From: an uncultured Hormoscilla sp. | Lineage (GTDB): Bacteria; Cyanobacteriota; Cyanobacteriia; Cyanobacteriales; Desertifilaceae | Reading direction: 5' to 3' | Length of the DNA stretch: 64,000 nt | Assembly (NCBI GenBank): GCA_963921275.4 | Contig: OZ001293.3 | Coordinates: forward strand, 1,696,001-1,760,000 | In this document: positions 33,308-61,977 of the stretch, one piece after another | How positions within the stretch are numbered: position 1 is the stretch's first letter | Layout: each line of letters opens with the position of its first letter | The notes under the pieces: generated by a model | The model's input: only the letters and a program-made list of their open reading frames with translations | What the model was told of the DNA's origin: nothing | Database searches by the model: none | Made by a program: the position numbers and the translations under genes

Positions 33308-33332
33308 GGTACATTTAGAAAGGCGTGCCTCT

Positions 33333-36300
33333 TCATGCTGATAAGTCTCGCAAGTCAGCCCAAGGGCGATCGCTCCTGAGTACATCTGAAGGATTGGGTG
33401 GCAAACCTCCCCGTCTGGTGACCGTAAAGCTAGAGCCCACAGCTACCGCACAACCAACACTTAATTGATTGCTAGGATTTACCACATTTTCTGGCAGTTT
33501 CACCAATCCAGAAGTGGTATCTACATTAGGATTAATAATTTTGACAATCCCATCTAGACCCAACTCTGAAGTTGCAGTAATACTGCTATCGGGTGAGACA
33601 AAAATTCCTTCAACTGTTATTTGCACATTGCCTCCCGCACCAAGTTCGGCATTGGCACTAATGCTGCTATTGTTGATGAGAGCTAAGGTTTCCGTGTCAA
33701 TGGTGATATTGCCTCCCGTTGCTTCAGCAGTAGCATTACCACGAATGCTACTGCCACGGTGCATTTGTATGCTATCTGTATTGAGGGTGATGTTACCCCG
33801 ATCGCCCGATCGCACTTCCGAACTCAAGCGACCGTCTGCATCCAAATCGATCAGATCGGCTGTAATATTTAAGTTACCTGCATCTCCCGTTCCCTCGCTG
33901 CTGACCGTAATTTCTCCGCGATCGCGCACCCGCAGGCGATCGGCAGTAATATCGATGGAGCCAGCGGCAAAAGCGCTTGTCGATTCTGCCGAAATCGAAC
34001 TGGAAGAATCGCCAGAAATACCTTCGACGAGAATATCGTCCGCGCTTCGATGTCTCCGGAGAGCGCTACTCGCACTACTCCGGAGACATCGAATATTCAA
34101 GTTCCCAGCTACACCACCACCCCCAGTCGCAGCAGCAATATGTCCGCCATCAAACACTCGCAGGCGATCGGTCTCTAAGGTAATGCTGCCGCCCGAAGCC
34201 GTAGAACGAGACCCCACCGAAGCCGAGATGCCGCTACTGGTGCCAAAGAAATCCACCAAAGCACTGCTGACCTCAACATTTGTCGCCCGAATGTCAATAT
34301 TTCCCGCATCTCCTCCGCTTTGGGTGGTGGAGGTAATTTGCCCTCCTTCTGCTAGCCGCAGGGTATTCGTTTCCACAGTAATATTACCCCCGCTTCGATG
34401 CCTTCGGGATGCTTCGCAAAGACCCCTCAGGCATCGACCGCTACTTCCAGAAGTATTTACTAAGGGAGAAGATTGGCTAAAAATGCCGCTAAAAAAGTCT
34501 CCCGTCGGGTTCGTGCCCGCAATTTCTAATGTATCCCTTACCCGGAGGACAATATCCCCAGCATCCCCAAGCTGGGGTCGAGCCTATTGTCACCTCCCAA
34601 CCCTCCCTTTCGGAACCGTGCATGCGACTTTCACCGCACACGGCTACTGGGTAGATGCCCTTGTCCTAGATAGAATTACTCAGGATTACTCCCTTTGTTC
34701 CTTTCTTCATGCAATTTCACCCCTTATGGTTAGTCTCAGACTACATATATGCCCAATTCCGGAAGGTTCGCGGGGGATAACAGTACCAACCCATATTATC
34801 CGCTCTTTACTAACGTTTACCTAATTTATTAGGTTCTCCAAGTTTTACCCGGTCAGGTCTTTAGTCCAACACTCATTACCTAGGATTTCTCCTGGTCTAT
34901 AACATTAAGGTTACTTTCACCCAAAGATTCTATCTATCACCGACCCACGTCAGCATATCCATAGGTGTTACCCCAGGCGTTCGCTTCTTGGGCCATCTCT
35001 CTTCTCATGGCTTGCGCTTTACATCTAACTTGTCCAAATGAGGACAGCTCATGAGAAGTTACTTCGTTCCCTGGTCTCATTTCACGATATCCTTAGACCC
35101 TCACTTTACCCCGGTAGTTCTTCGAGCACGATATTGGTCAAAGTCCATAACCAATACTAACTACTTTTCCCTTTTGGGCCAGCGCATAAAGCCTTATTTC
35201 GCTGGTTCTACATTACGAGGCTTACACGAGTTTGTTTCTTCTGATCTTAGACATCTTTCCTAGCGGCGTCACTGATTTAGACTATCAGCTATCCTACATT
35301 TAAGTCCTCGCTTAGCACCGCGACGATGTGGCTCCGCAGCACCTCACGCGGTTACCCCCATGCCTAGGGAGAGGGAATTTAACCCCCATGAGTACCAGAG
35401 TTCCTAGTTTCCTAGGCTAGCGTTCCGTATTTGACCACGTTAGGCTATAACTCATCGCACGGACTATTTGTACTTGTTTGCACCCGCCCTTCGTCTAGCA
35501 ATTGGATGCGAGTTGTGTCAATGGTGATATTTCCGCCATCACCTCCTTGACCGATGTTGGACGCTAAAAAACCGCTAGCATTAAAACTGTCTGCCGTTGC
35601 TCCAATGGCCTGAATTTCATCCATCGTTACTGCTGTTCGTCACGGCTGCCACAAACCCTTGATTTGAGAGGTTGAGGGTTCCTTGGGGATTGTTAATGGT
35701 AATATTGCCCCCCCTGCCACTGTTAGGAGTAGCCGAACGAGTTAAAATCCCGCTAAATTGTCCTCTGGAGCTAAACCCAGAAATTGATATTTCTCCCGCT
35801 GCCTCAATTGAAATATTGCCGGAAGTTTCTGGGGCGGCAGTTACGGTTTGAATTCTCGAACCCCCCGTTACTGACAGAGAACCGGTATTCAGTTCAATAT
35901 TACCTCTATTTCCCACTGCCCCCAAGGCAACATCATTGGCAATAGTACTCCCTGAGTTCAAACTCGTGCTGTTGAAAACATCAATTTTGATGGTTCCTCC
36001 ATTGGTATTTGGGTCGTTTCCCCTCGCAGTTAAGCCAGCGTTCGCTGTACTAGACCTTAAACTCAAGTTAGCTGCATTAATTGCAATTGTACCTCCTGTA
36101 GCGGAGGTGACATCTATTTGGGTATTGTCTAGCTGAATTTCTCCTCCCTGGGTTGCATCCGATAGTGCTACTTCTCCACCCGGTGCCAGTAACCTAGCAC
36201 TATCCAGGTTCAGAGAGCCTCCTGCAAAGATCAGATTTTTTCTTGGTTTTACTGCTAGAGTAGAACCATTAACTCCCACGGGTTGGGGATTATTTCCCCA

Positions 36301-36804
36301 TTGCAAACCCAGGGGAACATTTATCGTTAGCAAGGGAAGTGCTTCCGGGTTGGTAGCGCTGAATGTCATGCCATTTTTAAAGACTATACCCTGGGCGCTA
36401 CTGCCCAAGAAGGAACCGCCGATATCTAGTCTGGCGTTCGGTCCAAATATAATCCCATTGGGATTGATTAAAAATAGATTTGCCCCACCATTGGCGCGAA
36501 TTAAGCAATCAATATTGGAAATGTTGCTCCCTGTGACCCGGGTGAGGATGTTGTCGATATTAATGGCATTGTTGAAAAATGCTTCGCTGCCGGTGGGGAC
36601 GGAAAATTCCGAGAAACTATGGAACAGGTTGCTGCCTGCTGTGGTTCCTCCCTCAATGGTCATCACATTGGAGTTGGGCGTGACAATGGAATTATTGGGC
36701 AATGTGGCATCTGGCACTATTTGTGCCTTGCCAACCGGTGTGAATGCCACCAATAGCAGTAAACTACTAGCTACTGTTGTTGCTGTTTTATAGAGGTGTT
36801 TCAT
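33333..36804 (-). pseudogene. Second TpsA-family protein containing a group II intron, two in-frame palindromic inserts and a frameshift near 35620
   Basis: N-terminal domain in 35617-36804; GGNITI repeats continue in 35461-35620 and 33333-34569. Confidence 0.8.
34570..35460 (-). ncRNA. ORF-less group IIB intron, copy 1 (891 nt)
   Basis: 5' GTGCG; domain V TAGCCGTGTGCGGTGAAAGTCGCATGCACGGTTC; domain VI; removal gives ...STNS-P-GDAGDI in frame. Confidence 0.93.
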
Positions 36805-37012
36805 GGTACATTTATCGGGGGATTTCCTTTATATATTCAGCTGACAAATATTATAAATAAAATGTAAAAAACTTGGAAGATTCAATATTATTTTAATCTG
36901 TCCGGCCCGGAATGGGACCTGGAGACGATCGTGTAAGTGAAAACCCGGGTTTTCTCAAAAACCCGGGTTTCTGAATTCACAACTGTTGGGTTAGGCAAGT
37001 GGACGATCGCCG

Positions 37013-37906
37013 TTAATCGCGAAGCAAATGTAAAAAGCGGCGAATCAGACCAATAGTAATAGCAGGAACTTCCAGCTGAGGGGTCAACCCGACATCTTCG
37101 AGCTGTTGAAATTCCCGGATTGCCTGGGGATTCAGTGCGGCCAAACGCTTGCCAATCTCTGGACCTGTAAACTGGGATTTCTCTCCCCAGATGATGGCAG
37201 TTGGCACGTTCAGCTGAGCAATATAGGCAGACAAATCGAAGCACAAATCCCCGCGTAAGAAGGCAAGTGCGGCATATTCGGCATTCGGTTGTTCGGCTGA
37301 TTCCAGGTAGGCGTCCGCGATTTCTTCATATATCCGATCGGGACTGGCAAACTGGCGGGAGAACAGAAAGCTGCGAATCCCTCCACTGGTAGCAATACCG
37401 GTACTATAGAGCAAGCGGTCCAGAATGGGGGTGCTGGCCAGTTGAGCAAAGAAGCTGCGGGAGTAATCTTCTCCAAAATCAGACAAACCCGCAGGCGCAG
37501 TCAAGATCAGGGACTTAAATAAATCTGGGCGGGTAATGGCCGCTCTGATCGTAAAAGCAGCTGTCAGAGAAGAAGCAATTACCGCAGTCGGTTCGCTACA
37601 GGTTTGCTCCAGAAACTCAATAATCGTCGTCAGATAATCGTCAATCTGGTAATTGCGTTCTGGATGCTCCGATCGTCCCCATCCAATTAAATCTGGAGCC
37701 AAAATGCGATAGTCCCAGGCAAAAGCAGGATAGACTTTTGACCACTCGTAAGCCGAGGAACCACCGCCAAAGCCATGGAGAAATACCAAAGTTGGTAAAT
37801 TATCCCCATTGGAGGGTTGCCTTGGCGCTTCAGTTGCGGTATAATATACCATCCTGCCGATGGAGGTGACAATTGATTGCTGGCCGAAGCCTGGTGGCAG
37901 AAACAT
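37013..37906 (-). CDS. Alpha/beta hydrolase fold protein
   Basis: FLHGFGGG, APDLIGWGRS. Confidence 0.85.
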   Translation of the reverse strand: MFLPPGFGQQSIVTSIGRMVYYTATEAPRQPSNGDNLPTLVFLHGFGGGSSAYEWSKVYPAFAWDYRILAPDLIGWGRSEHPERNYQIDDYLTTIIEFLEQTCSEPTAVIASSLTAAFTIRAAITRPDLFKSLILTAPAGLSDFGEDYSRSFFAQLASTPILDRLLYSTGIATSGGIRSFLFSRQFASPDRIYEEIADAYLESAEQPNAEYAALAFLRGDLCFDLSAYIAQLNVPTAIIWGEKSQFTGPEIGKRLAALNPQAIREFQQLEDVGLTPQLEVPAITIGLIRRFLHLLRD

Positions 37907-38327
37907 CCACTAATCCTCAAAAAACTGGTTGATTTGTTCCGATCCTGCCTTAATTTTCCCCTCTTATACCAAATGCATTGTCAGCGGTCAGTTGTCAGCG
38001 TCATCCCGTTTCCTCGGCCTGGTGGCCACTGGTAAGGTACGCGGTCGCTACCACCTGCGATCCGTAGAAAATATTCCTGCCAAAAATTGAAAAATCTCAG
38101 AGAATCTTCTATATTGGGGGGTATCACCCATCATCCGTAAATACATTAAGATAAAGATGGTGTCTAGTTACATCATCAAAAAGGGGGCATCCTTATCTGC
38201 ATAAATATTATTAAATGACATTTATTGAGTAGATAAATTGGGCTTCTAGAGCATAATAGAACGTTTTTGTTCTCCAGATGGTGGCTTTAAGAAGAGATTA
38301 AGGTTGGGGAGCTAGAACCGTAGATAT

Positions 38328-38995
38328 ATGGAGGATGATAGGTTAAAAATGACTGCTTTTAGTAAGTGGAAGGATGGGATGAAAGAAAAATATAGTCTTC
38401 AATTTGACGATCGCGACCTGTGGGAAAGACCGGCACGTGAGGCTTTTGTATTTGGTAAAGTAACAACGGAGAGAGTCTCATTGCTGGAAAAAATTCAGGT
38501 ACAAGATTCCGTGTCTAATTTACCTGCACAAGCGGACGGGCCCCCGAATGGCTCGGGTACTGCACGGAAGTGCATAGCCTTAAACTTGGAAAAACTCAAA
38601 TCTTTTGAAGTGCTAGACTGGCAGTTTGCCGAATTGGGGGTAACATTTACAAATGCGATCGTCCTACAGCCGTCTAATCCAGCTTTTCCACCCCGGTCTG
38701 GTACGATGGTATTAATCAGCGGTCCCAGAAGCGGCTGGCTGGAAGCTTCCTTCCGAGAACCAGTCTCTTGCGTCAGCTGCTTTGTCACCAGTTCCCGGCA
38801 GATGGTTCTTCTGCTTACGATCTCGACGACCAGCTGCTGACCCAAGTGGAAATTCCTGAGTCTAATTTAGCAGGATCTAAATTGGCGATCGGGCCCAACA
38901 GCAACCTGATATTACAGGTGCCGAACATCCGCCGAATTACCTTCTACGCCTTTGACGGTCAATTCAGCATCAATGACTTCAAATTTTCTATCTAG
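38328..38995 (+). pseudogene. Conserved cyanobacterial hypothetical protein, frameshifted near 38812
   Basis: NAIVLQPSNPAFPP continues in another frame as AYDLDDQLL...FSINDFKF. Confidence 0.55.
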
Positions 38996-38997
38996 GG

Positions 38998-39908
38998 ATG
39001 GCCAAACCTGACAACCTGTTAATAAAATACAGCAGTCGTTTGTTTGCGGATCCCATGGAACGAGAGCAATTTGTTAACGCCTTAACTTCTCCGACTTGCG
39101 AACAGGTTGCATTCTTTAGTGCCGAGAAAAGCCTACAAAAGATCTGTTTTCTATTGATGTGGCTCTGAGTTGGCAGCCTCAGTTTGTAGATCGCTTAACC
39201 CCGTCAGTCAGGCCGGGAAAACATTACTTACATATCAGTGGTGCATACTACTGTCTCGACTTTTCTTCTGTCTTTGCTGCTACCACTCTATTAGCAATTC
39301 CTACTCCTGTAAAATTAGTCTTGGATGTCTGTGCTGCCCTTGGAGGTAAGAGTATCTTTGCCTGGAGAGCTGGAGAGCCTGAATTACTCCTATGTAATGA
39401 AGTGATTGTGCTGCTCTGATCTCTAACTTAAGGCGGTGTAAAATTCATCGGGCTGCGGTTATGAGTCTGGATGCAAAAATCATGGCAGAAATAATAGCAA
39501 AAATGGCAGGTTTGGCGATCGTAGATGCTCATTGTAGCGGTCAATCTTTACTTGCTAAAAGAATAGCAAATCCTGGATGTTTTCATCCGGCCATTATTAA
39601 TAAAAATGCTAATCGTCAAAAAATAATCTTAGCCAATAGCGCTCAGTTAGTCGCAAGGCTATCTTGCTTATATGACCTGTACCTATGCGATCGCGGAAAA
39701 CGAGCAGGTATGTGCGTGGTTTCTGAACAGATTTCCTCAGTTTGTGCCAGTAGTTGTGCCCGATCTGGTTCCATATCAATCTCATCTGACCCACCTACCT
39801 TGCTATCGGATCTGGCCTCAATCTGGTCTGGGTGCAGGTGCCTTTACGGCCCTGTTTCACAATACAGAAGAGGGAAAAAGCGCAAGCATCCCTGATGATT
39901 TTTGGTAA
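38998..39908 (+). pseudogene. RsmB/NOP-family RNA m5C methyltransferase
   Basis: YYCLDFSS, LDVCAALGGKS, VDAHCSGQ, YMTCT..AENE; multiple frameshifts and stops. Confidence 0.8.
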
Positions 39909-39961
39909 CATTCCCGTTTAAATTATTTATAAGCGAAGAACGAGATATATCTCTATGAAAG

Positions 39962-40834
39962 CTATAGCTGCTCGATCCTTGTCTGTAATTCTATGAGATC
40001 GGAATGCTGAGTGATGTCAAGCTGAGTAATTGCCCAATCAAAAAAGCTCTTTAGAGAAATGTAACTAGGTTCTTGTTTTTGCATAGCCTTTTGAATATCT
40101 TTGCCGTGAAACCAAGTCAAATACTGCTTCTGTTCCCAAAACTCCGATCGAGCAAACTGCTGTTGATAGATAGCAAGGCTCTCTTCAAACTGAGCTCGTG
40201 TAATCGTTTCAATAGCCTGTTTAAATTCGTCAATTAATTTTAAGGCTTTAGTTTGACAATCTTCCAGAACTAATGAGGCCGGAAGTTTGCCACTACCACC
40301 TGTCCATGTGGTTTTGAGGTGTGTCCGTGCGGCGCCCGTGTTTACCAAGTCCGATAATGCCCATTTTACAGCTTGATACTCTTGCAGTATGCTGGCGCTA
40401 GCTTTAATCCATTCTGAAATGGTCTCCATTCCAGGGGAATCTCCATGTCCCCATTTAGAACTGGGATTTTCCTGCTTTTCTGTATACTTGGCTATCCAAT
40501 AGCTGTGAATTAGATTAGCATCTAAAAGATAGTTTTCCACGCAAGCACGATGAGTCAGAAACCTCCGTGGTTTGTCCAGTTCCAGTAATTGGATATTGGT
40601 AGTAGGTATACTGTCGAAATCCCGATCGCGGAAGATGATATATCGCTGTTCTTCTGCTTCATCTGGAAAAAAGTAACCCCGAGCAAAAACGGAAAAAGTA
40701 AACTTACCACCTGCTGCAACAATTGCAGGTCGATCTCCGGGCAGGCGATCGACTACTCTTTTAAGCAACCTGGCGTCTAAACTAGATTGCTTGCCTTCAC
40801 AAAAAATAATTTTTTTCCCACTAACGACACTCAT
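39962..40834 (-). CDS. TOPRIM/DUF4435-like putative nuclease (AriB-like)
   Basis: IFCEG...D, RDRDFD, VENY motifs; starts 2 nt after the ATPase stop. Confidence 0.65.
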   Translation of the reverse strand: MSVVSGKKIIFCEGKQSSLDARLLKRVVDRLPGDRPAIVAAGGKFTFSVFARGYFFPDEAEEQRYIIFRDRDFDSIPTTNIQLLELDKPRRFLTHRACVENYLLDANLIHSYWIAKYTEKQENPSSKWGHGDSPGMETISEWIKASASILQEYQAVKWALSDLVNTGAARTHLKTTWTGGSGKLPASLVLEDCQTKALKLIDEFKQAIETITRAQFEESLAIYQQQFARSEFWEQKQYLTWFHGKDIQKAMQKQEPSYISLKSFFDWAITQLDITQHSDLIELQTRIEQL

Positions 40835-40836
40835 AA

Positions 40837-41898
40837 TTATCCCTCTATGCGGATGATATTTTCCTCGGGCACTAATGCCTCTACATAATCAGAGTGCGTT
40901 GTAATGATGAATTGATTATTTTCACCTAACTTGGGCAATGCACTCAGCAATGCCTGTTGCATTGGCGGGTGTAAGTGCAACTCTATTTCATCAATTAAGA
41001 TAACTGAATTATGAATATTCCAACTGGCAAAGTCCATTAACATGGGAAATACAGCACGTTCTCCCCCAGACATCTCAGAAATTTCATACTGGTTTTTACT
41101 GTCGTAAAGATAAAACCAGGGTTCGCTGAAGATTTCATCGATATTCTCTCGGGGGACAGGACCTTCAAAACTACGATCGGGAAAAACTGCTTTTAATCTC
41201 GATTCTATTTCAGCATACAAGTCCTTTTGTCCCGGTCGAAGTTTCTGAAATTTTCCACTTTCGATATCTTGATGAAATTGCCGCAACTTGGAAAGGCGAT
41301 CGCGCAAGAAATTCTCGGTAATTTCCAGTCGGATATCGGAGTTTTCCAGGGTGAGGCTTGTGGAAGTTCTCTGTTCTGTATACCAAAGGACTGTGCCCAC
41401 CTGCTCGAACACCTGGAACCCTTCAGAACGAAGCAGTTGCTTGGCATATTCTCGTCCTTTGAATTGAAAGAATTCCGCAGCGGTATTTGCTTGCACGCGA
41501 TCGCGTTGCCATCGGAGCTTGACAATATGCTCTTGGGCAGGAGAAGATAAGTCGTGCCCCATCTGAAGTAATTTCTGCTGGAACTCGCGGACTGCTTGCA
41601 GTTCTGGGGATGAAAACTGTACCTGTAGAGTAACTTCCGGTTCAAAACGTCCCCAGTTGCTGCTAATCAGTTCGTAGTTAAAGCCCGGCCATTCCAAGTC
41701 AGATAGTTTTTTCAATCTCCCAGTTGCTACCCCCAATGTTGCCGCGATCGCCTGTAAAATGCTTGTCTTTCCCGCACCATTCATGCCGATCAAAACGATC
41801 AGATCTTTGGCTAATCCTGTTTCTGCATCGGTAAAATCGAATACTGGGGGCTGACGAAATCTCTTGAAATACTTTAACTCGATAGATTGAATTTTCAT
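40837..41898 (-). CDS. ABC/AAA_21-type ATPase (AriA-like)
   Basis: Walker A GMNGAGKT, signature MSGGE, Walker B ILIDEIE, ITTHS; no TM partner. Confidence 0.85.
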   Translation of the reverse strand: MKIQSIELKYFKRFRQPPVFDFTDAETGLAKDLIVLIGMNGAGKTSILQAIAATLGVATGRLKKLSDLEWPGFNYELISSNWGRFEPEVTLQVQFSSPELQAVREFQQKLLQMGHDLSSPAQEHIVKLRWQRDRVQANTAAEFFQFKGREYAKQLLRSEGFQVFEQVGTVLWYTEQRTSTSLTLENSDIRLEITENFLRDRLSKLRQFHQDIESGKFQKLRPGQKDLYAEIESRLKAVFPDRSFEGPVPRENIDEIFSEPWFYLYDSKNQYEISEMSGGERAVFPMLMDFASWNIHNSVILIDEIELHLHPPMQQALLSALPKLGENNQFIITTHSDYVEALVPEENIIRIEG

Positions 41899-42263
41899 AA
41901 GCTGTCCCCGATCGCCTGCACTGAAGAACCATCTGCGGCCTATTTTACTACAAACTAGCTGGCCGGATGTGCCAGCAGTGCCAGCGGTACTGGAGGAGAT
42001 CGGGCCATATCAATCTCACCCCCTCGCTCCGGAACCTCCTCACTACTGCCGGTGTATACAGGCCAGTTTCGCAATACAGAACGGGGCTCCGGATCGACCT
42101 GTATCCCTTTACCATATATTATCCACAAAAGCAAATATCTTAGATTTTTTTAACCCCTAGAATATTTATATGCTATGCTCTGGTCTATAACCAGGCAACA
42201 AAAAGCTAGGTTTATTTAAAAAAAATTAACATTTAGTAGCACAATTTAATAAAACCAGATCCC

Positions 42264-43378
42264 ATGTTGCTTTCAGAAACCACAACTCAACCAGTTAACA
42301 GCACCCCGTCGCGAAGGAAGAGCAAAGTTGCTGACAATAAAATAGATAGCACCTTCTCTAAATCCAATCAGCGCATGCTCGACATTCTAGAAAGCATCGC
42401 AGATGCAATTTTTGTCTTAGACCAACAGTGGCGGTTCACATATCTGAATGGTCATACAGAGTCACTATGGCAAAGGAACTGCGTACAACCCAAAGTCAGT
42501 TGGTGCAGAACCAGACCATGTCTTCTCTAGGTCGCTAGTTGCTGGTGTGGCCCATGAAATTAACAATCCTGTTAACTTCATTTACGGCAATGTGGTCTAT
42601 GCGAAGGAATATGCTCTCGACCTGACGCGCCTGGTTAATCTGTATAGTCAGCATTGTCCCCAGGCAGTACCAGAGATTGAAGCAGCAACTGATGAAATTG
42701 ATATCGAGTTCATCGCTGCTGACCTGCATAAACTATTAGATTCGATGAAATTGAGGGCTGAACGCATCCGCAATATTGTCCTGTCCCTGCGCGCAATTTC
42801 TCCCGCCTGGATGAGGATGGGTTAAAGGCGGTCGATATTCACGAAGGGATTGACAATACTCTGCTGATCGTGTAGCATCGCCTGCATCCTCAGCCGACAG
42901 GAAGAGATCGGGAGATTCAAGTCATCAAAGATATGGGTATTTGCCCTCTGTAGAGTGTTACCCAGGACAGCTGAATCAGGTGTTTATGAATGTCCTGAAT
43001 AATGCGATAGATGCTTTATCAGGTTCATTTGTCATCAGCAAATAATCTGGGAAAAAGGCAGAGTATGCTGCTAAGAGTGGCGGAAGTGGAGTTCAGAAAG
43101 CCCCCAAGATTTGGCTCGGGACTGAGGTGCTGAAAAAACATTCCCGCGTGGCTATCACAATTAGAGACAATGGACCCGGAATAGCTGAAGAGATCCTATC
43201 ACGCATATACGATCCCTTCTTTACTACTAAACCTGTGGGTGAAGGTAAGGGATTGGGTTTATCTATCAGCTACAAAATTATTGTCGAGAAGCATCATGGC
43301 ATCCTGAATTGTACTTCCCAACCTGGAGTTGGGACGGAGTTCGCGATCGAACTCCCTATCTTTCGCCGCCATAAATAG
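42264..43378 (+). pseudogene. PAS sensor histidine kinase, deleted and frameshifted
   Basis: PAS start, VAHEINNP H-box, DNGPG and G boxes split across frames. Confidence 0.8.
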
Positions 43379-43660
43379 GCGTCGTTCGTAGTAAGCACTT
43401 TAGTGCTTCCCGTTCGTAGTAAGCACTTTAGTGCTTCCCAGGCGCGAAAGCGCCTAGAGGTTGGGTTGAGGCACGGATGCTGTTGGCGAAATCAGTTTAA
43501 TTCTCTGAAACCCCTTTTCTACGGTAGACAGCATCAACGATAAATTTGGCTTTCTCCCAATTCGCCAACAGCATCAGGCACGAAACCCAACCTACAGATT
43601 AATTATAAATCAGATGGTTGGGAATTATAGTTTGTCATGATGGTAGATCCGAGCGCGTAT

Positions 43661-44260
43661 CTAAGTGAAGATACTTTGCAAATTATGTTTAGCCCGATCG
43701 AACTCCGGCACCTGCCAACTGGGAACGAGGGGACGATCGAGTTCTTGGGAGTTCAGATAGACTGGATAGCGCAATTCAATTTGTAAAGCTTCTACCTGGG
43801 GAGGTTGGCCGTAGTTGCGGACAATGTAACCTCCACTAAACACTTTGTTACGAACAATTTGATAGTCCCTGGCCCTAAAAGGGACAGTTGCGATCAAAAA
43901 CTCCGAACAACTCCGCTCGTTGGCATTTCCCAAGCAAACATCATCGACGATCGGTCCCAATAAGCTTGCAAATCTAACAGATAGACTTTACCAAATTGCT
44001 CGCTAGACTGATGTAGCAATTGCTGAAGTTGTTGATGATAGGGTCGATAATATTGCTCGATATAGCGACTATAGATTGCTTGTAAAACGGTCACGCCCAG
44101 ATCGGGCAATAAATCGTAGAGTTTGTCAAGCTGCCAGTCTTGGTTGGGGAGGTAATGCCGATGTTCTTCCCTCAATTGTAAAGCCATTTCGGAGGGAATC
44201 AATAGTCCGCTGTGGGGAATACTGGCAATAATGGGAGATCTTTTAGCTTTGGGGGTGTGG
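43661..44260 (-). pseudogene. N-formylglutamate amidohydrolase
   Basis: IPHSG, QYYRPYH, FSGGYIVRNYG, ALQIEL; internal deletion and frameshift. Confidence 0.75.
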
Positions 44261-44351
44261 AGAAGATGGGATCATGTCAGTGGTCAATTGACAATTGTCA
44301 ATTCTGAGTGATTTTGGGTTAAGATAAGAGATGTAGTTATCCAAGAAGTTT

Positions 44352-44582
44352 ATGAAATTAGAAAGGCGATCGCCCCAGATAGTGAACCTCAAATGGGGAC
44401 AATTATAAATTGAAGGGAAGCAGTATTTTAAGGATGTTAAACTTTTCCCAGGAAGTTCCCGAGAGTGGGATTGGCGCGAGATCGGTACTCGTCATTCCCC
44501 GGGAATTCAAAGCACGGATGTCGCAGAAATTCTCGATAATGGTGCTACCGTTGTGGTTCTCTCTAAGGGAATGTGGGAGTAA
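44352..44582 (+). pseudogene. Mth938/DUF498-like protein fragment
   Basis: KDVKLFPG.SREWDWREIGTRHSPGIQ; in-frame TAA; truncated at the IS66-like remnant. Confidence 0.65.
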
Positions 44583-45070
44583 CTCCTCACGGCAATAGAG
44601 ACAGCTTATTGAGAATGTAGAGCGAGCCATTCGGTATGGTGCAAAAATTCAGGGGGTAAAATCGCACCCCACCCTTGCAGTATAAAGATTTCAGCTCTCA
44701 AGGCTATGGTACAACTTCCATACGGCTGATTTATTTGAGCTCCGCTTGGGGTATGCTAGCTTATATGACCTTTACTGCTACACTACAGACCGAGGAGCTG
44801 ACATTCGCCGTCAGACGAGATGGCGAACTATGTGCTGCTGGGGTAAAGCAGCAGCAACTCATCAAAGAACAGCAGGCTAGAATTGAGAAGCAACAGAAAG
44901 AACTGGAGGCTCTCAACGAAGAAAACTTACAACTCAAGAACGAGCTGGACAAACTGAAAAATCGGTCGTCTCAAAACAGTTCCGTTCCCCCTTCACAAGA
45001 CATTGTCAAGAAACCTTCTGATAAAAGCAAGCGCAAAAAAGGAAAAAAGCGCGGTCCCAAATATAATCAC
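44579..45070 (+). mobile_element. IS66-like transposase N-terminal remnant
   Basis: GTAA terminus; coiled coil followed by SQNSSVPPSQD...KKRG. Confidence 0.55.
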
Positions 45071-45262
45071 TGTGGCGGAGACATCGTACTCGCACTACCC
45101 CTCGCGCATCAAGCGGCCATATTCGCCGGGAGCCCAGAAACCCGGTTTTGCCGGAATTACCGAGTTTCTTAATTTTGCCATTGAGTTGCTAGTTCATCCA
45201 GGTGCTCACATCCACTGCTAGCTTTTGACCTAACCGCAGTAGCTGATGACTCTGGGATAAGT

Positions 45263-49950: not shown

Positions 49951-49963
49951 TATGACTCAAATT

Positions 49964-50126: not shown

Positions 50127-50297
50127 CGAAAAAAAATCAACCTTTTTTTGAAGGCGTTTCACCGGCGGTGAAGAGCATGAGTGAAGGCGTTTCACCGTTA
50201 GAAGCCAATCCAATTGGGACCGGTTCTGTGCCTAGGCCCAGGACCGGTAGTGGTTTTGACCGCTTGCGGTTATCCCTATTGGGTTGGGGCTAGAATT

Positions 50298-52830: not shown

Positions 52831-52871
52831 TTCAAGACCTCCTCTTTCCGCAAAAAATATACCAAGTTTAA

Positions 52872-53035
52872 CTTGATGTTGTTAACTACATCGCCTTCAA
52901 GTCTCATTCGGGACAAGACCGCCTAATTTTGGGGGCTTTTTCAACATTACCGGCGATCTGCATACCCAAAATGTGCAACGCATTTGTTCCACCTTCATAA
53001 TCTAGCATAGCATCCACCTATTTTCCTATTTTTGG
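52872..53035. repeat. ~164-bp direct repeat, copy 2
   Basis: Near-identical to 49964-50126. Confidence 0.9.
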
Positions 53036-53919
53036 AAGTATTGTTGTTGATGATGTCGCGGAAGTTCCCGCTAATATCTAGATCACCGGGGTTCGTCCCG
53101 CGTACCACCACATAGAAAAATCTCATCTCTGAGGTCTCTTCAACTCCGTTACCAAAAAATTGATATTCTAATTGTCCGGACATTTGACTTCCTCCTCTAA
53201 TACAGTTTTAACACTCTCAGTAATCCAAACGATAGCAGGTCTGCTCTTGTCAATTGATGGTTACGTTTACTGAAAAATATACGCAAACATGCAACTACGC
53301 TTTATTTGCTTATTGTAGCTGCTTCAGGTTTTAGTATTCCGGTAGCTTTGAGGCTACGGCCATAACGTTTATCAAGTACCCTTGCTCCAGCTTTTTGACG
53401 CCGTCAGTAGTTTAACCATTTACTCGATTTTCTCTCCTGGGGCTTGGGGCCTTGGGTTTCGGCATTAGGGCTTAGGGCCTAACCTAGCCTTGCTTGCCTT
53501 TCACTACTTTAACCCATTTTCTTTCTGACTGTCAAGTGTTCTACCGAATTTTTTTGCTTTTTCAACATTACCACTATACTGCACAAACTAGGCCGAAAAC
53601 CAAGCTTTTCGGTCGAATCGAAAGGAAATAGCTTGAGTATTGTTGCTTAGTCAAGAGACTAGATTAGCGGTCGTGTTTCCGCCATGTTTCCTGGAAGTGC
53701 TTCTAGCGCTCCCAGGAGACATGGCCTGTGTGCCGTAAACGCCGCGCTGGGGGCGCAGCCATGTCACCACCGGATAAGAGCAAGGAGCAGAGATATCGAA
53801 ACCGAACCCAAACCACCGGTATTCGCTCGCATTTGGTAGAGGCTTTCGGGTATCCACGAATTCTACAGTCTGTAAACTTTTGCCTACTCTGGCCAAGGCA
53901 GGTTGGGGGTTGTTGACCT

Positions 53920-54130
53920 AGAATAAGTCTATTCTGGATCAGAATAAGTCTATTCTGATCCAGAATAAGTCTATTCCGACTTAGAATAGATTTCCGACTT
54001 AGAATAGATTTATTTCGATCTAAAATAAGTCTATTATAGCCAATAATAGCCTATTATTGGCTATAATCAGTCGATTCTCTCTCACATTAAGCTTACTTTT
54101 GCCAAGAATCAGTCAATTCTCTCTCACATA
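53920..54130. repeat. Degenerate 21-bp tandem repeat with palindromic core AGAATA..TATTCT
   Basis: AGAATAAGTCTATTC three times at 21-bp spacing, then decaying. Confidence 0.75.
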
Positions 54131-54324
54131 AAGGATTTTTTGGGTAAGCTTACTCAATACCCCTAATCCCTCGTGGCCTGAACTACCATCCGTTGCTTTC
54201 GATGTCTAGCACTACTCGTACTGCCCGGCTGTATCACTTGACAAGCATGATATACTATCGTCTCATGCTTGTCAAGTGATACAGGTCGCACACGGATTTT
54301 TGGCAACCCCTTTGCGCCATAGCG

Positions 54325-55630
<1,306 letters not shown>

Positions 55631-55875
55631 GTAAAAAGCGCCGGTCCATAGCCCGAACCCGTGCAGGGTCCGGCTACAGATACAAAGCCCGCCGGCGCGG
55701 GCTATATTGCAAAACTGAGATGCACCCGACGCAATGCTTATAAGAAGAAGCGACAGCGAGTTTTGGGGAGTGCAACTAATCTGGTAGAAATAGATTTACC
55801 TTTTTTGCTGGGGTTGTCGCCAAAAAATAATGGAGAACCGCTGACAGTTCCTGCATAGGCAATGGTGATTGGCAA

Positions 55876-57135
55876 ATGGGAAAGATGTGGAAAAAGTTTT
55901 GGCAGTGGTTGCAGGGGTTGCTACGCAGGGGGCGATCGCACAAAAGAAGAGTCCCCCATAAACAGCAGGAAAATGTACCGTACCGGAAAAATCGGCCCCT
56001 TTTATATCAGAATTATGAGTTTCTGTTCCTGCGGTTGCTGGAAGGGGTTGCAGGCGGTTGGCAAGAACAACAGGTGTGGCAGTTTCTGGCAGAATGGGAA
56101 AATCGCACGACGGAAGCTGATTGGATAGCTTGGTTGCATAGCTTTGGAGAACGAACCCTGTATTCTCAATCGCCTAATGTAGAATTAGGACGGCGAATGC
56201 TGCTATTAAGTCAGATTGGTTGTGGAGAGTTGGGAAGAGTTGCTGGGGAATTTGGAGAAGAGTTGCTGAGGCGATATTCTCAAATACAAGAAGTCTCGAA
56301 TAGCCAGGATGCCGCCCCTCCTTCTATGGCTGAAACTCCTCCGGAACCAGAGGATACCCCCCCCGAACCAGTGTCTGAAACTCCTTCGGGAATAGAAGCG
56401 AATGCGCCCTCCGATAGACCGGAACAAAAACCAGATGCGATCGCCCCTGATCCTGTTTACGAAACTATCATCAAACCAGATGAGATCGCCCCGTTACCCC
56501 TGTACATAAAAGACAGAAAAGTAAGGCAAAGATGTCAAGCGCAACCAGACAGTTTGGATGGGGTATTGGCCATGTTACAAAATAATTCTGGGATGGTTAA
56601 GCAACTGGCTCTGCAGATAAGTATTCAAACAACAAACCCCCAGGTTATTCTCAGAGAACTGGAAGTTAGAGCTTGGATGCAAGAGGCATTGAGGTATGAG
56701 AAAGCTGGGAAGTTTTCAAGGGCGATCGCATGCTGCGATCGGGTCCTAGCCCTGAAAGCAGATTACCAGATCGGTTGGGCAATGCGAGGGGATGCGCTGT
56801 TTAAGTTAAAAAGATATGAGTTGGCAGTGGCGTCTTATAATAAAGCTACGGAACTGAAACCAGATGACTGGGAAGCTTGGTATAATCAAGCGATGGGATT
56901 GTTTAAGTTATCACGACATGCAGAAGCAGTTGATAGTTTCCAGCAGTCTCTGGAAATTAAACCAGATTTTGCCCCGGCTTGGAAAAATCTGGCCATCGCT
57001 TTGTTTAACCTGAAACTATACTCAGAGGCGATCGCATCTTGTGAGGAGGCCCTGAAAATTCAGCCCCAGGACCAAGTAGCGATCTCTTGTATGCAGAAAT
57101 CTAGGGCGGCTCTTAGGCACCAGGATGATGTATAG
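55876..57135 (+). CDS. TPR repeat protein
   Basis: C-terminal TPRs (AWYNQAMGLFKL, AWKNLAIALFNL). Confidence 0.85.
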   Translation: MGKMWKKFWQWLQGLLRRGRSHKRRVPHKQQENVPYRKNRPLLYQNYEFLFLRLLEGVAGGWQEQQVWQFLAEWENRTTEADWIAWLHSFGERTLYSQSPNVELGRRMLLLSQIGCGELGRVAGEFGEELLRRYSQIQEVSNSQDAAPPSMAETPPEPEDTPPEPVSETPSGIEANAPSDRPEQKPDAIAPDPVYETIIKPDEIAPLPLYIKDRKVRQRCQAQPDSLDGVLAMLQNNSGMVKQLALQISIQTTNPQVILRELEVRAWMQEALRYEKAGKFSRAIACCDRVLALKADYQIGWAMRGDALFKLKRYELAVASYNKATELKPDDWEAWYNQAMGLFKLSRHAEAVDSFQQSLEIKPDFAPAWKNLAIALFNLKLYSEAIASCEEALKIQPQDQVAISCMQKSRAALRHQDDV

Positions 57136-57191
57136 AGTGATGATTTGAACTTGAAAATAGTCAGCAATTAGCAATTAACTAACCCCAAATC

Positions 57192-58004
57192 ATGCACAAA
57201 ACATGGCTTTATGCTTGCCTGGCAATAATTTTATTAGTGGCAAGTGCCCGCAGTATATTTGCATCAGAAGCTCATACCAAAGCCGAAAACTTACAACAAA
57301 CTCAGACGCCTATGTACAGCTACCGCATTGTTAACCATTACCCCCACGACCCACAGGCATTCATACAAGGTTTGTTATACCACAATGGCGTACTTTACGA
57401 GGGCACGGGTTGGTGGGGCAGATCTTCTATACGCCGGGTTGAACTGGAAACTGGCAAGGTTTTGCAAATCTCACACGCGACTAGGCGCTACTTCGGAGAG
57501 GGTATCGTTATATGGCAAGACCGCATTATTCAATTGACTTGGAAGTCTAAGGTAGGTTTTGTCTACGATCGCGAAACTTTTGAGAAAATCAGCGAGTTTA
57601 AATATCTTACAGAAGGTTGGGGAATTACTCACGATGGCAAGCGCCTAATTATGAGCGATGGGACAAATATTCTGTACTTTTGGGACCCCGATAGCTTCCA
57701 GGAGATCGAGAAGCTGCAAGTGCGGGACGGTGATACCCCCGTCCCCCGACTCAATGAGTTGGAGTACGTTAAAGGGGAAATTTGGGCTAATGTCTGGGGG
57801 ACCAATCTTATCGCTCGCATTTCCCCCCAGACGGGTCAAGTTTTGAGCTGGATAGACTTGACTGGGTTGCTCGATATCGCACTGCGTCGGGATCCCAATG
57901 CGGTGCTGAATGGGATCGCTTATGACGAGAAAGGCGATCGCATCTTCGTAACAGGAAAGCTGTGGCCGACATTATTTGAAATCGAGTTAATTCCCAAACC
58001 CTAG
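57192..58004 (+). CDS. Glutaminyl-peptide cyclotransferase (beta-propeller type)
   Basis: YPHDPQAFIQGL, YFGEG, EGWG, LNELE, VLNGIA, VTGKLW. Confidence 0.9.
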   Translation: MHKTWLYACLAIILLVASARSIFASEAHTKAENLQQTQTPMYSYRIVNHYPHDPQAFIQGLLYHNGVLYEGTGWWGRSSIRRVELETGKVLQISHATRRYFGEGIVIWQDRIIQLTWKSKVGFVYDRETFEKISEFKYLTEGWGITHDGKRLIMSDGTNILYFWDPDSFQEIEKLQVRDGDTPVPRLNELEYVKGEIWANVWGTNLIARISPQTGQVLSWIDLTGLLDIALRRDPNAVLNGIAYDEKGDRIFVTGKLWPTLFEIELIPKP

Positions 58005-58101
58005 ACAACAGTTTGTAGTGAGGACTTTAGTCCTCAACGCGATCGCTAAAGCACTCACTACGAACTACAATAGAGAAGAAAGTTATCAGTAAAGACAAAT
58101 C

Positions 58102-58422
58102 ATGTCAAAGATAAAACAACAGATCCAACGGCTATTTGGCATCTCACAGCCCCAGACTACTCCCGAACCTCCCCCGACTGCTGCCAAGACGGATGCTGAA
58201 TTAGAAGCAACCTTCCAGCGCCTCCTGGAAGGAGTAAAAAATGGCTGGAGTCGGGGCAATGTATTGGGATTCTTCATCGGAGAGAAGACTACACAAGGGG
58301 AATTATCAGCCTGGTTGCGTCCCTTTGGAGAAACATTGCTCGCCTCACCCACCCAGCATGAAGAGTTAGCACTGGGGATGCGCGCGCCCTCAATCAGTTG
58401 CAGGTGCAAGGGCGAACGATAA
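58102..58422 (+). pseudogene. Truncated paralog of the N-terminal domain of the 55876 TPR protein
   Basis: FQRLLEGVKNGW...WLRPFGETLL resembles FLRLLEGVAGGW...WLHSFGERTL. Confidence 0.55.
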
Positions 58423-58813
58423 AGGTAAATCAGAGCAAGCGATCGGGACTTAAATAATACCGTCCAATATGCCAGCGTTGGGTCAGCAGTAAGCGGCGTC
58501 ACAGCCAGAAGACTATCAACCAAGCGGTCGCTGAATCAGAAAGAGATGTCCATACCAGAACCCTTTGGCTGGAGTGCGGTCTCGGGGATAGTAGCGATCG
58601 CGATAGTGGTAATCTGGAAAAAACTACGTCGCCACTAAAACGTAGTAGAGTTGATACCATTGTGTCAAAACAATGCTACAATTAGAAGCGTTATGTTATT
58701 AGTCGGTATAACACCGGCTCATACCGAGTTACCTGGGGACCGCCTGGTAACGCGCGGGGGTTTGAACCCCCGGCGGGCTGTAAAGAAAGAGACCCTATAC
58801 CCCCCACCTGCTA

Positions 58814-59647
58814 ATGTCAGACGAACGCACAATCAAAAGCCTGTACACAGATGGAGCATGCACCGGCAACCCAGGACCTGGAGGCTGGGGCGTCCTAGTA
58901 AACTTCAACGATGATTCTATCCATGAAATGGGGGGTGCCCTTGGGCAAACCACCAGCAACCGGATGGAACTGCAAGCCGCGATCGCGGCCTTAAGACTGG
59001 TAGCTAGCACGGGACAAACGGAACCAGTCACCCTCTACACCGATAGCGAATATGTCAGAAAAGGGATAACAAGCTGGATAGCCAGTTGGAAAAGAAATGG
59101 CTGGAAAACATCCCAAGGGAAACCGGTGCTAAATCAAGACCTCTGGGAAAGGCTCGCGAAGCTCAACAGCCAGCAGGTAAAGTGGGAATACGTCAAAGGC
59201 CACAGCGGCAACCCAGGCAACGAACGCTGCGATGCGATCGCCCGGGCCTTTGCCAGTGGCCAACAGCCCTCACTACAGCAAGCAGCAGCGAACCCCTTAG
59301 CCTTAGAAGAGAGCAACAATACCCTCGACAAAACGATAGAATCCAGTCAAGTTCCCCTCGATCATGCCATGAATGACTTGCCCATGCCTGAAGAACCCGC
59401 AGCAGATAGCCTGCCCCGCGAAATCAGAGTCGCCCAACTACGCAACCTGATAGAAACCTTGCAAATAGCCGATGAAATAGCCAGCAAAGGCTACCTGATC
59501 GCCAGTTCCGAAATCGCCGACCTCATGGATATCAACGCCAGTGCAGTCACCAGTCGGGGCGAGCACTGGGTGTGGCGTAACTGGGTAGTCTCCCGAGTCC
59601 GACGGGAAAGCAATCAAATCCTCTGGCAACTAGAACGAGTCGATTGA
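58814..59647 (+). CDS. rnhA: Ribonuclease HI with cyanobacterial C-terminal extension
   Basis: YTDGACTGNPGPGGWG, NRMEL, TDSEYV, VKGHSG..GNERCD. Confidence 0.95.
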   Translation: MSDERTIKSLYTDGACTGNPGPGGWGVLVNFNDDSIHEMGGALGQTTSNRMELQAAIAALRLVASTGQTEPVTLYTDSEYVRKGITSWIASWKRNGWKTSQGKPVLNQDLWERLAKLNSQQVKWEYVKGHSGNPGNERCDAIARAFASGQQPSLQQAAANPLALEESNNTLDKTIESSQVPLDHAMNDLPMPEEPAADSLPREIRVAQLRNLIETLQIADEIASKGYLIASSEIADLMDINASAVTSRGEHWVWRNWVVSRVRRESNQILWQLERVD

Positions 59648-59939
59648 ATTGTTAATTGTTCGTGCAATTAGCAATTCTAAATTGGCAATTCACCCAGGCA
59701 AGTCTGGCTAAGGCCAGGCTGGATCGGGAGCATCTCACTTTTGCACGTGGATTTGCAAATGGAAAAGGGTGCAACGATAAAGCATGTAATCTAGCCCGCG
59801 CAGGCGGGCTTTGTTCGTGTAGCCGGACCCTAAAGGGTCCGGGCGGCTTTTGTTAAGTTATGTTTAATATGATCTATCGGATGAGGTGGAGAGCATGGCA
59901 CAATACAGGAGAATTTCATCATAATTAGTCAGGTCTATA

Positions 59940-61977
59940 GTGAACGTAGAAATTATTATCATTGGTGTAGGAGTAGCGGCGCTGTCAATCGCCCTAGGGC
60001 TAGAATTACAGTATCGGCGTCGCCCGGGAAATAACCTGGAGTTGACTGCGGGAAACTGGAAACTAGACATGCCGTCACCGCAGCACTATCAGCTGACAGG
60101 GGAGCTAGAATTCATCAACCGGACCGAGGCGCTAGAGATCATGTTGCCAGAGGTCTGGGCAGAAATAAAGCTGTTGTCGGCATCCTCTCTAGAAGGTGTC
60201 AGTTGCAACTCGAAGGTGATTTCCATGCACTCCGATGTCCCTGCTAGAGAGGACGGTTACTGGGATGCGTACATCGTCAAGTGGGCCGCGAAAACCAAAA
60301 TTCAAGTCTCAGTGGAGATCGCAGGGGACAATCTCAGTCACATGCAAACAGCCTGGATTAAGATTTACTATATCACCTATGGCCCGGAAGGCAGAATTGA
60401 CAAGGTCCGCCATATAATTCATCCCTTGCAATATCCAGATAGAAGTATAGCGCCCAAAAAGATAAAAGTCAAGGGGGCAGAGGTATTGCCGATCCGGACT
60501 CACCTGCTCACGGAACTGGATAATCCAGTAGAGGTGGTAAAAAGTTATGTTCTGCCTCACGCCAAAGCAGGGGATATAGTAGCGATCGGGGAAACCCCGA
60601 TCGCCCTGATGCAGGGCAGATATCGTCATCCCAGTACGGTAAAGCCCGGATGGGCAGCAAAACGGATATGCTATTACTTTATGCCCACCTCCAGCTTAGC
60701 AACCGCTGGCGGCATGCAAACCTTAGTGGATCTGTGCGATTCGTTCTAGCCTAACGTGGTCAAACACGGAACGCTAGCCCGGTTTCATTAGCCGGGAACT
60801 CTGACCGCATGGGGGTTAAATTCCCCTCCCCCCAGGTACGGGGGTGACACCGGTCCTCGGTGCTACGAAGCGACATCATCGTGGTGCTAAGCGAGGACTC
60901 AAATGTAGGATAACTGGCAGCCTAAGCCGGTGACGCCGCTAGGAAAGATATCCAAGGTTAGAGCAGGCAAACATGTGCAAGCCTCGTTATAAGGAACCAG
61001 CGAAATAAGGCTATATGCGCTGGCCTAAAAAGGAAATGGTAGCTAGTATTAGTTTTAGACTCTGGCTAATATAGTACTCAAATAGCTCCCGGGGTATAGT
61101 GTGGACCTAAAGGTATCGCGAAATGTTGTTAGGGAACGAAGTAACCTCTCGTGTGCTGTCCATCAGGACAAGTTAGATGTTAAGCGCAAGCCACGGGGGG
61201 AGGGATGGCCCAAGAAGCGAATGCCCGGGGTAATTCCTGGGATAACATCTACAGTAATGTAGATGATGCTGGGTAGCCAGCGCTGACGTGGGTCGGTGAT
61301 ACTAGGAAGCTGCTGGAATGAGTAATCCTAAAAAGCCACGGAACTAATCCGAAACGCAAGTGGAGGATAAGGTATGGATAACTGGTAAAACTGACTTGAA
61401 AATGGTGATACTAACGGTTATCAGAACAACCACTCGCTAAACCAGGAAAGGGAAGAAAAGACAGGCGGCAAGGGCTAACGGAAGTAATTCCTATTAAGTC
61501 TACCTATGAAAAGGGCCTAGTACCCAGTAGCCGGATGCGGTGAAAATCGCAAGTCCGGTTCCGAAAGGGAGGGTCGGGAAGCGATTCCCGGCTCGACCCC
61601 ATCCAGTGGGACCAGTGCGGGTAGTGCTGGCCTTTGTCATCGGGGCGATCGCCAAAGCAGTATTGCGCAAGCCAGGAGTATTTTACCAGCTAGCGGGAGA
61701 GCAAGCCAGACTGATCGATGACGTAACGGGCACCCTGCCCCCCTACGATCAGTTTATCGTCCTGGGACCGGAAAATCCCCAACAGGTAGTGGCCGAGATT
61801 CAAAAAGAGACAGGATTGTCAGCGGCGATCGTAGATGTGAACGACTTAAAAGCGGTTAAGATATTGGCAGCAACCCCTGGTCTAGACACCTCCTTATTAG
61901 AGCAAGCTTTGATCGGCAATCCAGCTGGCAATGCTGACGAGCAGACGCCGGTAGTACTGATTGCGGCGAATAGCTAG
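59940..61977 (+). CDS. F420-0:gamma-glutamyl ligase-like protein; exons 59940-60733 and 61605-61977 (388 aa spliced)
   Basis: PIRTHLL, GETPIALMQGR in exon 1; LIDDVTGTLPPYD, IVDVNDL, NPAGNADEQTP in exon 2; junction MQTLVDL-VGPVRV. Confidence 0.85.
60734..61604 (+). ncRNA. ORF-less group IIB intron, copy 3 (871 nt)
   Basis: 5' GTGCG; domain V TAGCCGGATGCGGTGAAAATCGCAAGTCCGGTTC; domain VI with GCGA tetraloop and bulged A. Confidence 0.95.

Follow-up and report, generated by a model that had tools for sequence, protein, structure and literature searches.

How do introns that encode no protein of their own come to occupy several sites of one bacterial chromosome? The question is raised by a stretch of 64,000 nt from an uncultured Hormoscilla sp. 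(Cyanobacteriota, assembly GCA_963921275.4), which spans positions 1696001-1760000 of contig C1 (OZ001293.3) in a genome of 7.03 Mb and 7 contigs. This stretch is called the window throughout, and coordinates without a contig name refer to it. A first-pass annotation, made from the letters of the window alone, had read three group IIB introns of one family in it (here I1, I2 and I3), all without an open reading frame (ORF) for a reverse transcriptase (RT). Our analysis makes it very probable that they are members of a lineage-specific, RNA-guided family of ORF-less IIB-type introns with at least 326 copies, which would splice and move by means of a helper RT provided in trans.

Identity and boundaries of the three introns

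I1 (34570..35460, minus strand) is 891 nt long, I2 (54501..55335, minus strand) 835 nt and I3 (60734..61604, plus strand) 871 nt. Each starts with GTGCGA, and the three align over their full length with a mean column identity of 79%. At the 3’ end of each, the Rfam model RF00029 (domains V-VI) scores above its gathering score of 40 bits, with 46.8 bits in I1 (34571-34648), 47 bits in I2 (54502-54579) and 46.4 bits in I3 (61526-61602). The match to the Rfam model group-II-D1D4-2 is weak (22 bits vs a gathering score of 36, E 0.043). A search of the whole genome found no RVT_1 domain inside the window, the nearest matches being located at C1 1671236 and 1776194. From the RF00029 matches, the end-to-end alignment and the lack of RVT_1, the three elements can be regarded as genuine ORF-less group IIB-type introns of one family, in line with the first-pass annotation.

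Domains V and VI of I3 cover 61528..61604 (plus strand) and comprise an AGC triad, a GAAA loop and a bulged branch-site A. By our reading of the sequence the putative branch A is base 61596, which precedes the 3’ splice site by 8 nt. AGC, GAAA and a bulged A 8 nt from the 3’ end are likewise read in I1 and I2, and the last intron base is a pyrimidine in all three (..AGCT, ..GACT and ..ATCC for I1, I2 and I3).

The intron ends were evaluated by excision in silico. Removal at the above coordinates opens frames across the junction of 59+412 codons for I1, 83+58 codons for I2 and 269+124 codons for I3, and all of them are closed if the 3’ boundary is moved by 1 or 2 nt. Moreover, empty sites are found in congeners. 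For I3 the exon flanks abut in one congener with zero bases between (L003: 1499|1498), and for I2 the flanks are contiguous in two congeners. I1 has no close orthologue in congeners (43-50% identity over parts only) and its boundary is hence supported by frame restoration. The coordinates given at first are exact for all three introns.

Guide sequences and their exons

Within domain I the guides follow each other in the order exon-binding site (EBS) 2, EBS1 and EBS3, and pair with exon positions -13..-9, -6..-1 and +1, the first two being intron-binding sites (IBS) 2 and 1. In I3 (plus strand) EBS1 AGACTC (61057..61062) pairs with IBS1 GGATCT (60728-60733) at 5/6 positions counting G-U, EBS2 TAAGG (60990..60994) with IBS2 CCTTA (60721-60725) at 5/5, and EBS3, a T at 61097, with the first base of the 3’ exon, an A at 61605. 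In I2 (minus strand) EBS1 TGCACT (55009..55014) meets IBS1 AGCGCA (55336-55341) at 5/6 positions and EBS2 TCTAG (55077..55081) meets IBS2 CTAGA (55344-55348) at 5 positions, while EBS3 is a T at 54974 opposite an A at 54500. For I1 (minus strand) the respective pairs are GGACTT (35141..35146) with TAGTCC (35461-35466) at 5/6, TGTAG (35208..35212) with GTACA (35469-35473) at 4/5, which contains the TGTA/TACA pair read at first, and an A at 35106 with a T at 34569. Every string and coordinate of the first-pass annotation is reproduced, including 5/6 pairs for each EBS1, 4, 5 and 5 positions for EBS2 and the EBS3 pairs A:T, T:A and T:A in I1, I2 and I3.

EBS3 is the variable base of the motif GGGGTA[N]AG, 35 nt 3’ of EBS1 in I3. 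Subgroup IIA introns use a delta-delta’ interaction next to EBS1 instead of EBS3. Here EBS3 is found in domain I but apart from EBS1, and there is an EBS2; this arrangement is that of subgroup IIB.

The pairing was then quantified for the 292 unique insertion sites of the family (see below), using guides against the exons of other types as controls. EBS1 pairs at 5.23 of 6 positions (control 2.64) and EBS2 at 3.84 of 5 (control 2.13). EBS3 forms a Watson-Crick pair with position +1 in 83% of the sites (control 0.40). When each type was represented by a single site, the observed values were not reached in any of 5000 permutations. In 40 diverged copies that were aligned together with the adjoining exon sequence, the 12 guide pairs give 480 cells, of which 89.2% are paired. 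Shuffling reduces this to 45.1% (0/500 shuffles reach the observed value), and sliding the partners by 1-3 columns reduces it to 36-43%. All 12 guide pairs covary with changes on both sides. This includes the 11 pairs of EBS1-IBS1 (92.5% of cells paired) and EBS2-IBS2 (84.5%), whereas EBS3:IBS3 pairs in 37/40 copies (UA 23, AU 7, GC 6, GU 1). The EBS-IBS matches are far beyond chance. There are 51 EBS2/EBS1/EBS3 combinations among the full-length copies and 50 among the unique sites, so the tracking of exons by guides, first read in three copies, extends to about 50 guide types across the genome.

Structure of the ribozyme

The same 40 copies were folded with RNAalifold. The consensus consists of a branched domain I and helices of domains II, III, IV and VI, and 91 of the 161 predicted pairs show compensatory changes. 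The helix of domain VI covaries as well (alignment pairs 1306-1329). A further predicted helix between the 5’ GUGCG and the 3’ strand of domain V was regarded as spurious; owing to this mispairing, the assignment of domain V is taken from Rfam. Taken together, domains I-IV and VI by covariation and domain V by Rfam give the six-domain fold expected by the first-pass annotation, and the ribozyme structure is under selection.

In some copies the loops of domains II, III or IV contain small palindromic insertions that are GC-rich and fall into two kinds (L031, L042, L059, L028, L030, L038, L053, L060 and L064; alignment columns 615-640, 702-803 and 1110-1133). These look like miniature mobile repeats that invaded the introns.

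Copy number and spread of the family

A profile hidden Markov model (HMM) was built from 33 subfamily representatives and searched across the genome with nhmmer. This resulted in 577 family matches covering 394,416 bp, i.e. 5.61% of the genome, of which 454 include the 5’ end, 404 the 3’ end and 326 are full-length single matches. The expectation of many more copies beyond the window is thereby borne out, and for a bacterium the intron load is unusually large. GTGCGA starts 324 of the 326 full-length copies, which occupy 292 distinct sites as defined by distinct 30-nt flanks. Read word depth is in the thousands in intron bins vs 54.8 and 13.1 on exons; this depth is not a copy number but fits a high one.

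Two subfamilies dominate. The I3-type comprises 137 near-identical copies. Its exact-length members number 122; 61 of these show no deviation from the consensus, and on average 1.02 of the 871 nt differ. The I2-type has 71 near-identical copies, in which an average of 1.47 of the 835 nt are changed. With half of the exact-length I3-type copies identical to the consensus, activity would be very recent, and both lineages look like very recent bursts. In contrast, the guide type of I1 has 2 copies, the second one at C1:1036263-1037154. These figures modify the earlier proposal that the family spreads by changing its guides. The ~50 guide types that track their exons are in agreement with it, but most spread occurred with unchanged guides, since the two near-identical fixed-guide lineages make up 208/326 copies at over 100 different, loosely matching sites. 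Guide change founded new lineages, I1 being a rare one, but accounts for far fewer copies.

One may ask whether the introns were copied passively along with other repeats, such as insertion sequence (IS) elements, RT-bearing introns, REP-like units or duplicated genes. Some flanks do recur (one I2-type flank 9x, one I3-type flank 8x), the host gene of I2 exists in 3 intron-bearing copies, and nested arrangements occur. However, 292/326 copies have distinct 30-nt flanks, 277/292 sites are left after removal of 80-nt flanks that are at least 70% alike, and 106/121 I3-type sites are mutually unrelated over positions -30..+15. By these flank counts passive copying explains at most ~15% of the copies and is largely refuted; as an account of the family it is extremely improbable.

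Strong matches to the I3 sequence are confined to four genomes of the same genus, the best with 92% identity, while in 36 more distant genomes the matches do not extend beyond ~150 nt and mostly concern the 3’ end. The sites of I3 and I2 are empty in the congeners examined. On these comparisons the family can be termed lineage-specific. The strand of the introns shows no pattern with position along the chromosome, where GC skew is only weak.

None of the small contigs contains an intron copy. One of them, C3 (31,420 bp), has 17.6% G+C vs 42-49% in the other six contigs and may be a contaminant or an unusual extrachromosomal element. Sequencing runs filed under other organisms include contigs that match the I3-type intron perfectly or with very few differences, and these join flanks matching other sites of the genome, including the 5’ exon of I1. 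It seems that unrelated samples contain this strain or one very close to it.

Target sites

After removal of near-duplicate flanks, the sites of the I3-type (106 sites) give the logo aaCCTta..GAGTCT|A and those of the I2-type (54 sites) AAttaGa..aGTGCA|A. GAGTCT in the former is the exact complement of EBS1 AGACTC. Informative positions are the 12 paired ones and A-A at -15/-14, amounting to ~10 bits in total. With so little information thousands of sites would be eligible. Target choice therefore seems to be made almost wholly by RNA, and the target sequence predicted for an ORF-less donor would be aaCCTTAnnGAGTCT|A. Because the target is very short and almost purely RNA-defined, the I3 and I2 ribozymes are candidate programmable gene-targeting tools.

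Rfam matches to ‘CRISPR-DR28’ were obtained at 59792-59850 and 11366-11389 (36.6 bits, cut-off 35). Both are single palindromic units, and a CRISPR array was rejected. The unit at 59792-59850 belongs to a REP-like repeat (minus-strand sequence ..CCCTAAAGGGTCC|GGCTACACGAACAAAGCCCGCC..), which is a recurrent I3-type target elsewhere in the genome. With a strict pattern 50 genome copies of this repeat are found; 3 of them contain an intron, and the remaining 47, among them the one at 59792-59850, are intron-free.

Possible supply of reverse transcriptase

Following the known biochemistry of group II introns, the excised intron RNA would bind an RT/maturase made by an RT-bearing intron elsewhere in the chromosome, reverse-splice into DNA sites that match its guides and then be copied into DNA. 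The same EBS-IBS pairings would let the intron splice out of transcripts, and sense insertions in genes could for this reason be tolerable.

Candidates for such a helper are numerous. The genome contains 93 matches to RVT_1 and 75 to GIIM. Of the former, 22 are located in apparently intact frames that run for at least 550 codons without a stop. Four RT ORFs (588-592 aa) were examined; they combine RVT_N, RVT_1, GIIM and HNH, and one of them shares 73-85% identity with the other three. Among solved structures, chain C of 6ME0 is by a wide margin the closest to them (E 1e-113 to 1e-115); it is labelled ‘Maturase reverse transcriptase’, and we take it to be the T.el4h RT of Thermosynechococcus elongatus. 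The 5’ halves of RT-bearing introns are matched by the family HMM from model position 1 to ~520-650 (domains I-III) with ~45-114 bits. No family member exceeds 1100 nt as a single match, and a tblastn search of the 33 subfamily representatives with 4 resident RTs revealed no significant RT remnants (E >= 0.48). Given the low HMM scores and the lack of remnants, the ORF-less lineage did not arise recently by deletion from an RT-bearing intron of this genome. The first-pass annotation had looked to an RT-containing relative or a maturase encoded elsewhere; the former is not present among the family members, while genes of the latter kind are found in the genome. We infer that the RT is supplied in trans.

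A different route would be autonomy at the RNA level, that is splicing and reverse splicing without an intron-encoded protein, the cDNA being made by an unrelated host or retron-type RT or the copies arising by recombination independent of RNA. The missing RT-bearing close relative, the missing RT remnants and target logos almost without positions beyond the RNA-paired ones would all suit this explanation. On the other hand, the genome has at least 22 apparently intact group II RT-maturase-HNH genes, and the HMM match to RT-bearing introns implies a shared fold that a maturase could bind. Moreover, A-A at -15/-14 in both big subfamilies is unexplained by pairing and fits a protein contact, and the one tested precedent needed the RT of a related intron (Mohr 2010, PMC2882425). 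We therefore consider RNA-level autonomy quite improbable and retain supply in trans.

Host genes and insertion in coding sequence

Sites were assigned by a codon-usage classifier which requires a stop-free, coding-like window of 100 codons across the exact excision junction. It classed 57 of the 292 intron sites as sense, 20 as antisense and 215 as not coding-like. For 2744 random positions the numbers are 630, 659 and 1455, and for the 292 sites with the excision shifted by 1 nt they are 6, 2 and 284. In shuffled sequence 1/1000 was coding-like. Hence introns are depleted from coding sequence (26% vs 47% of random positions, Fisher p 9e-12) and biased towards the sense orientation within it (57:20, binomial p 2.9e-5, or 9.6e-5 after removing paralogous sites). 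The three window introns are all classed as sense, as annotated at first, but across the genome this orientation is a bias and not a rule.

I3 interrupts a gene for a conserved protein with a weak F420-ligase-like match. Its exon 1 (59940..60733, plus strand) holds 264 codons and 2 nt, exon 2 (61605..61977, plus strand) 1 nt, 123 codons and the stop, and once the intron is excised the conserved gene has 393 codons. In 4/4 congeners the gene has no interruption and spans 391-403 codons, with an identity of 85-96% in the exon 1 part. In the intron-less orthologue PF01996 matches residues 185-332 across the junction with 22.2 bits, below the cut-off of 25, and NCBIfam returned no family for it. 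Pfam and NCBIfam searches likewise returned none for I3 exon 2 and the exons of the I1 host.

The host of I2 is a paralogue of a type II restriction endonuclease. Exon 1 (55336..55585, minus strand) matches positions 80-158 of profile NF052465 and exon 2 (54328..54500, minus strand) positions 160-203. The copy in the window is without ~80 N-terminal residues; as its frame opens only from profile position ~80, it is seemingly truncated. It is one of three intron-bearing paralogues in the genome, and three congeners have uninterrupted frames of 211-225 codons.

I1 lies in a repeat-rich open frame downstream of a gene with a two-partner secretion (TPS) domain. The frame of exon 1 (35461-35639, minus strand) and exon 2 (33336..34569, minus strand) is restored to 471 codons on excision, while relatives have frames of 838-2336 codons. 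The TPS domain (PF05860) is found in 35620-36804 (minus strand) in a different frame, with a stop or frame change between. Two TPS domain genes are arranged in tandem (32249-33385 and 35620-36804, minus strand) and flank the I1-bearing frame. As the first TPS gene and the frame of the I1 host overlap by ~20 nt in different frames, the region 32249-36804 (minus strand) suggests a frameshifted large exoprotein gene. Taken together, only I3 clearly interrupts a gene that needs splicing. The neighbourhood within the window is ordinary chromosome with genes for a hydrolase, GH57, a Na/Ca exchanger, LRR and TPR proteins, a glutamine cyclotransferase, RNase H, GNAT and RuvX.

These distributions bear on whether the family is still alive. 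The copies could be relics of a finished burst, ribozyme-shaped DNA that neither splices nor moves, is tolerated mostly outside genes and inactivates its hosts elsewhere. Most sites lie in no coding-like frame, the depletion is strong, 20 copies are antisense in coding-like frames, domain V is deleted in 4/40 aligned copies, and the hosts of I2 and I1 look truncated or frame-broken. Set against this are the identity of half of the exact-length I3-type copies to their consensus, which points to very recent activity, the catalytic core and the 91 helix pairs kept by compensatory change, the sense bias, and the I3 host, which is conserved and uninterrupted in four congeners and whose frame is exact across the intron. 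A finished burst hence appears unlikely.

The interpretation of a living, RNA-guided family with a trans-acting RT is nevertheless weakened by several points. Splicing and lariat formation are what we infer from the sequence. Group II introns have the boundary consensus 5’ GUGYG and 3’ AY, but the penultimate base is C in I1-I3 instead of the usual A, which occurs only in the ..TAAT subfamilies; the boundaries of I3 and I2 themselves are fixed by the contiguous empty sites of congeners. The copies with domain V deletions are presumably dead, and those antisense in coding-like frames are beyond rescue by splicing. Two of the three window hosts (I1, I2) look damaged already, so I1 and I2 need not splice. 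None of the resident RT-bearing introns is close to the family (the above ~45-114 bits compare with hundreds for members). Finally, copy identity could result in part from gene conversion instead of recent insertion, and the copy counts rest on one assembly of 7 contigs.

Nested and composite elements

Three kinds of nesting are seen: ORF-less introns within ORF-less introns, RT-bearing within ORF-less and ORF-less within RT-bearing ones. The first kind includes twintrons of 1742 nt in which one I3-type intron is inserted into another at model position ~723. On C1 such units are located at 1325884-1327625, 5180205-5181946, 4741852-4743593, 6029574-6031315 and 6410256-6411996. As the insertion site within I3 resembles the intron’s own target (..TTCCTATTAAGTCT|A), these units are self-invading.

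At C1 1143255-1147412 (L021) a complete RT-bearing intron with an RT-maturase-HNH ORF of 592 aa sits inside an ORF-less member at model position ~710, and similar arrangements are present at C1 6622865-6625992 and 5052255-5054161. A composite element occurs ~8-9x with identical flanks. It consists of an RT-bearing intron whose domain I harbours an I2-type intron, with an I3-type intron nearby on the opposite strand, and its RT frame measures 486 codons vs ~590. Examples on C1 begin with 1057198-1061068 and, by their first positions, 2406917, 3087391 and 4451358, with further ones on the reverse strand at 1151072, 3654045, 4759460 and 6633502. Apparently, the nested unit has been copied as a whole.

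Comparison with known systems

Spliceosomal introns presumably descend from group II introns, of which most bacteria hold none or few. How group II introns ever reached high copy numbers is a standing puzzle. Organellar ORF-less group II introns depend on trans-acting maturases; they are degenerate, reside in protein genes, and are mostly immobile and ancient. In contrast, the copies described here are near-identical, apparently still spreading and found in a free-living bacterium.

The closest precedent is T. elongatus, for which 28 CL/IIB1 introns are described, 17 of them ORF-less, together with six EBS families that match their sites and with twintrons (Mohr 2010, PMC2882425). Its RTs splice and mobilise ORF-less relatives, as the first-pass annotation had noted for this species. 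The TeI3 introns resemble the present family in being of cyanobacterial CL/IIB-type, with more ORF-less than RT-bearing members, diverged EBS1/2/3 families and twintrons. In T. elongatus the RT/maturase is shared from related introns; here co-resident RT-bearing introns of the same structural class exist and may be used in trans. The scale is clearly different, with 28 copies and 6 EBS families there and at least 326 full-length ORF-less copies and ~50 guide types here. Furthermore, the ORF-less introns of T. elongatus are 85-100% identical to RT-bearing parents and retain ORF remnants, neither of which we found, and few of them lie in genes, whereas ~77/292 sites here are in coding-like frames with a sense bias of 57:20. 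The proposed mechanism matches the Thermosynechococcus precedent (PMC2882425). What is new is the scale, and recency stands out as well.

Among 1,790 representative bacterial genomes the maximum was 101 group II introns per genome (Miura 2022, PMC8919778), the highest published number that we found. The one ORF-less family described here exceeds this more than threefold, a comparison that is approximate as the census methods differ. Arthrospira platensis and other Phormidiaceae are alike in having many CL-type introns, some ORF-less, and Trichodesmium carries ~24 group II introns per chromosome (PMC8919778). Trichodesmium also shares group II and nested introns that must be excised for genes to be restored; splicing was demonstrated experimentally there (Pfreundt & Hess 2015, PMC4649490), while for the present family it is deduced from sequence. 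The full-text literature, with most subscription journals outside its coverage, gave no account of one prokaryote with several hundred group II introns; a genome paper could exist.

The family offers a natural system for the rate of guide change, with ~50 guide types and two near-identical bursts, for a shared RT/maturase pool serving degenerate introns, and for selection filtering insertions, as sense bias and coding depletion are measurable. The bursts could be dated by comparison with congeners that have far fewer or different copies. For T. elongatus, thermophily was argued to widen target access (Mohr 2010, PMC2882425).

A farther-reaching reading, which we put forward tentatively and hold to be somewhat less likely than its opposite, is that this is the largest group II population yet seen in a prokaryote (~400 elements), an ongoing RT-less burst fed by a common trans-acting RT/maturase pool. 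In it ~50-60 coding frames would already be interrupted in an orientation that permits splicing, because targeting needs only ~10 bits of RNA-DNA pairing. Should the organism be a mesophile, the burst would have taken place without the high temperature regarded as necessary for such spread by Mohr et al. (PMC2882425). If true, Hormoscilla would be a free-living organism that shows, still in progress, the first stages proposed for the origin of genes rich in introns and of a common splicing apparatus.

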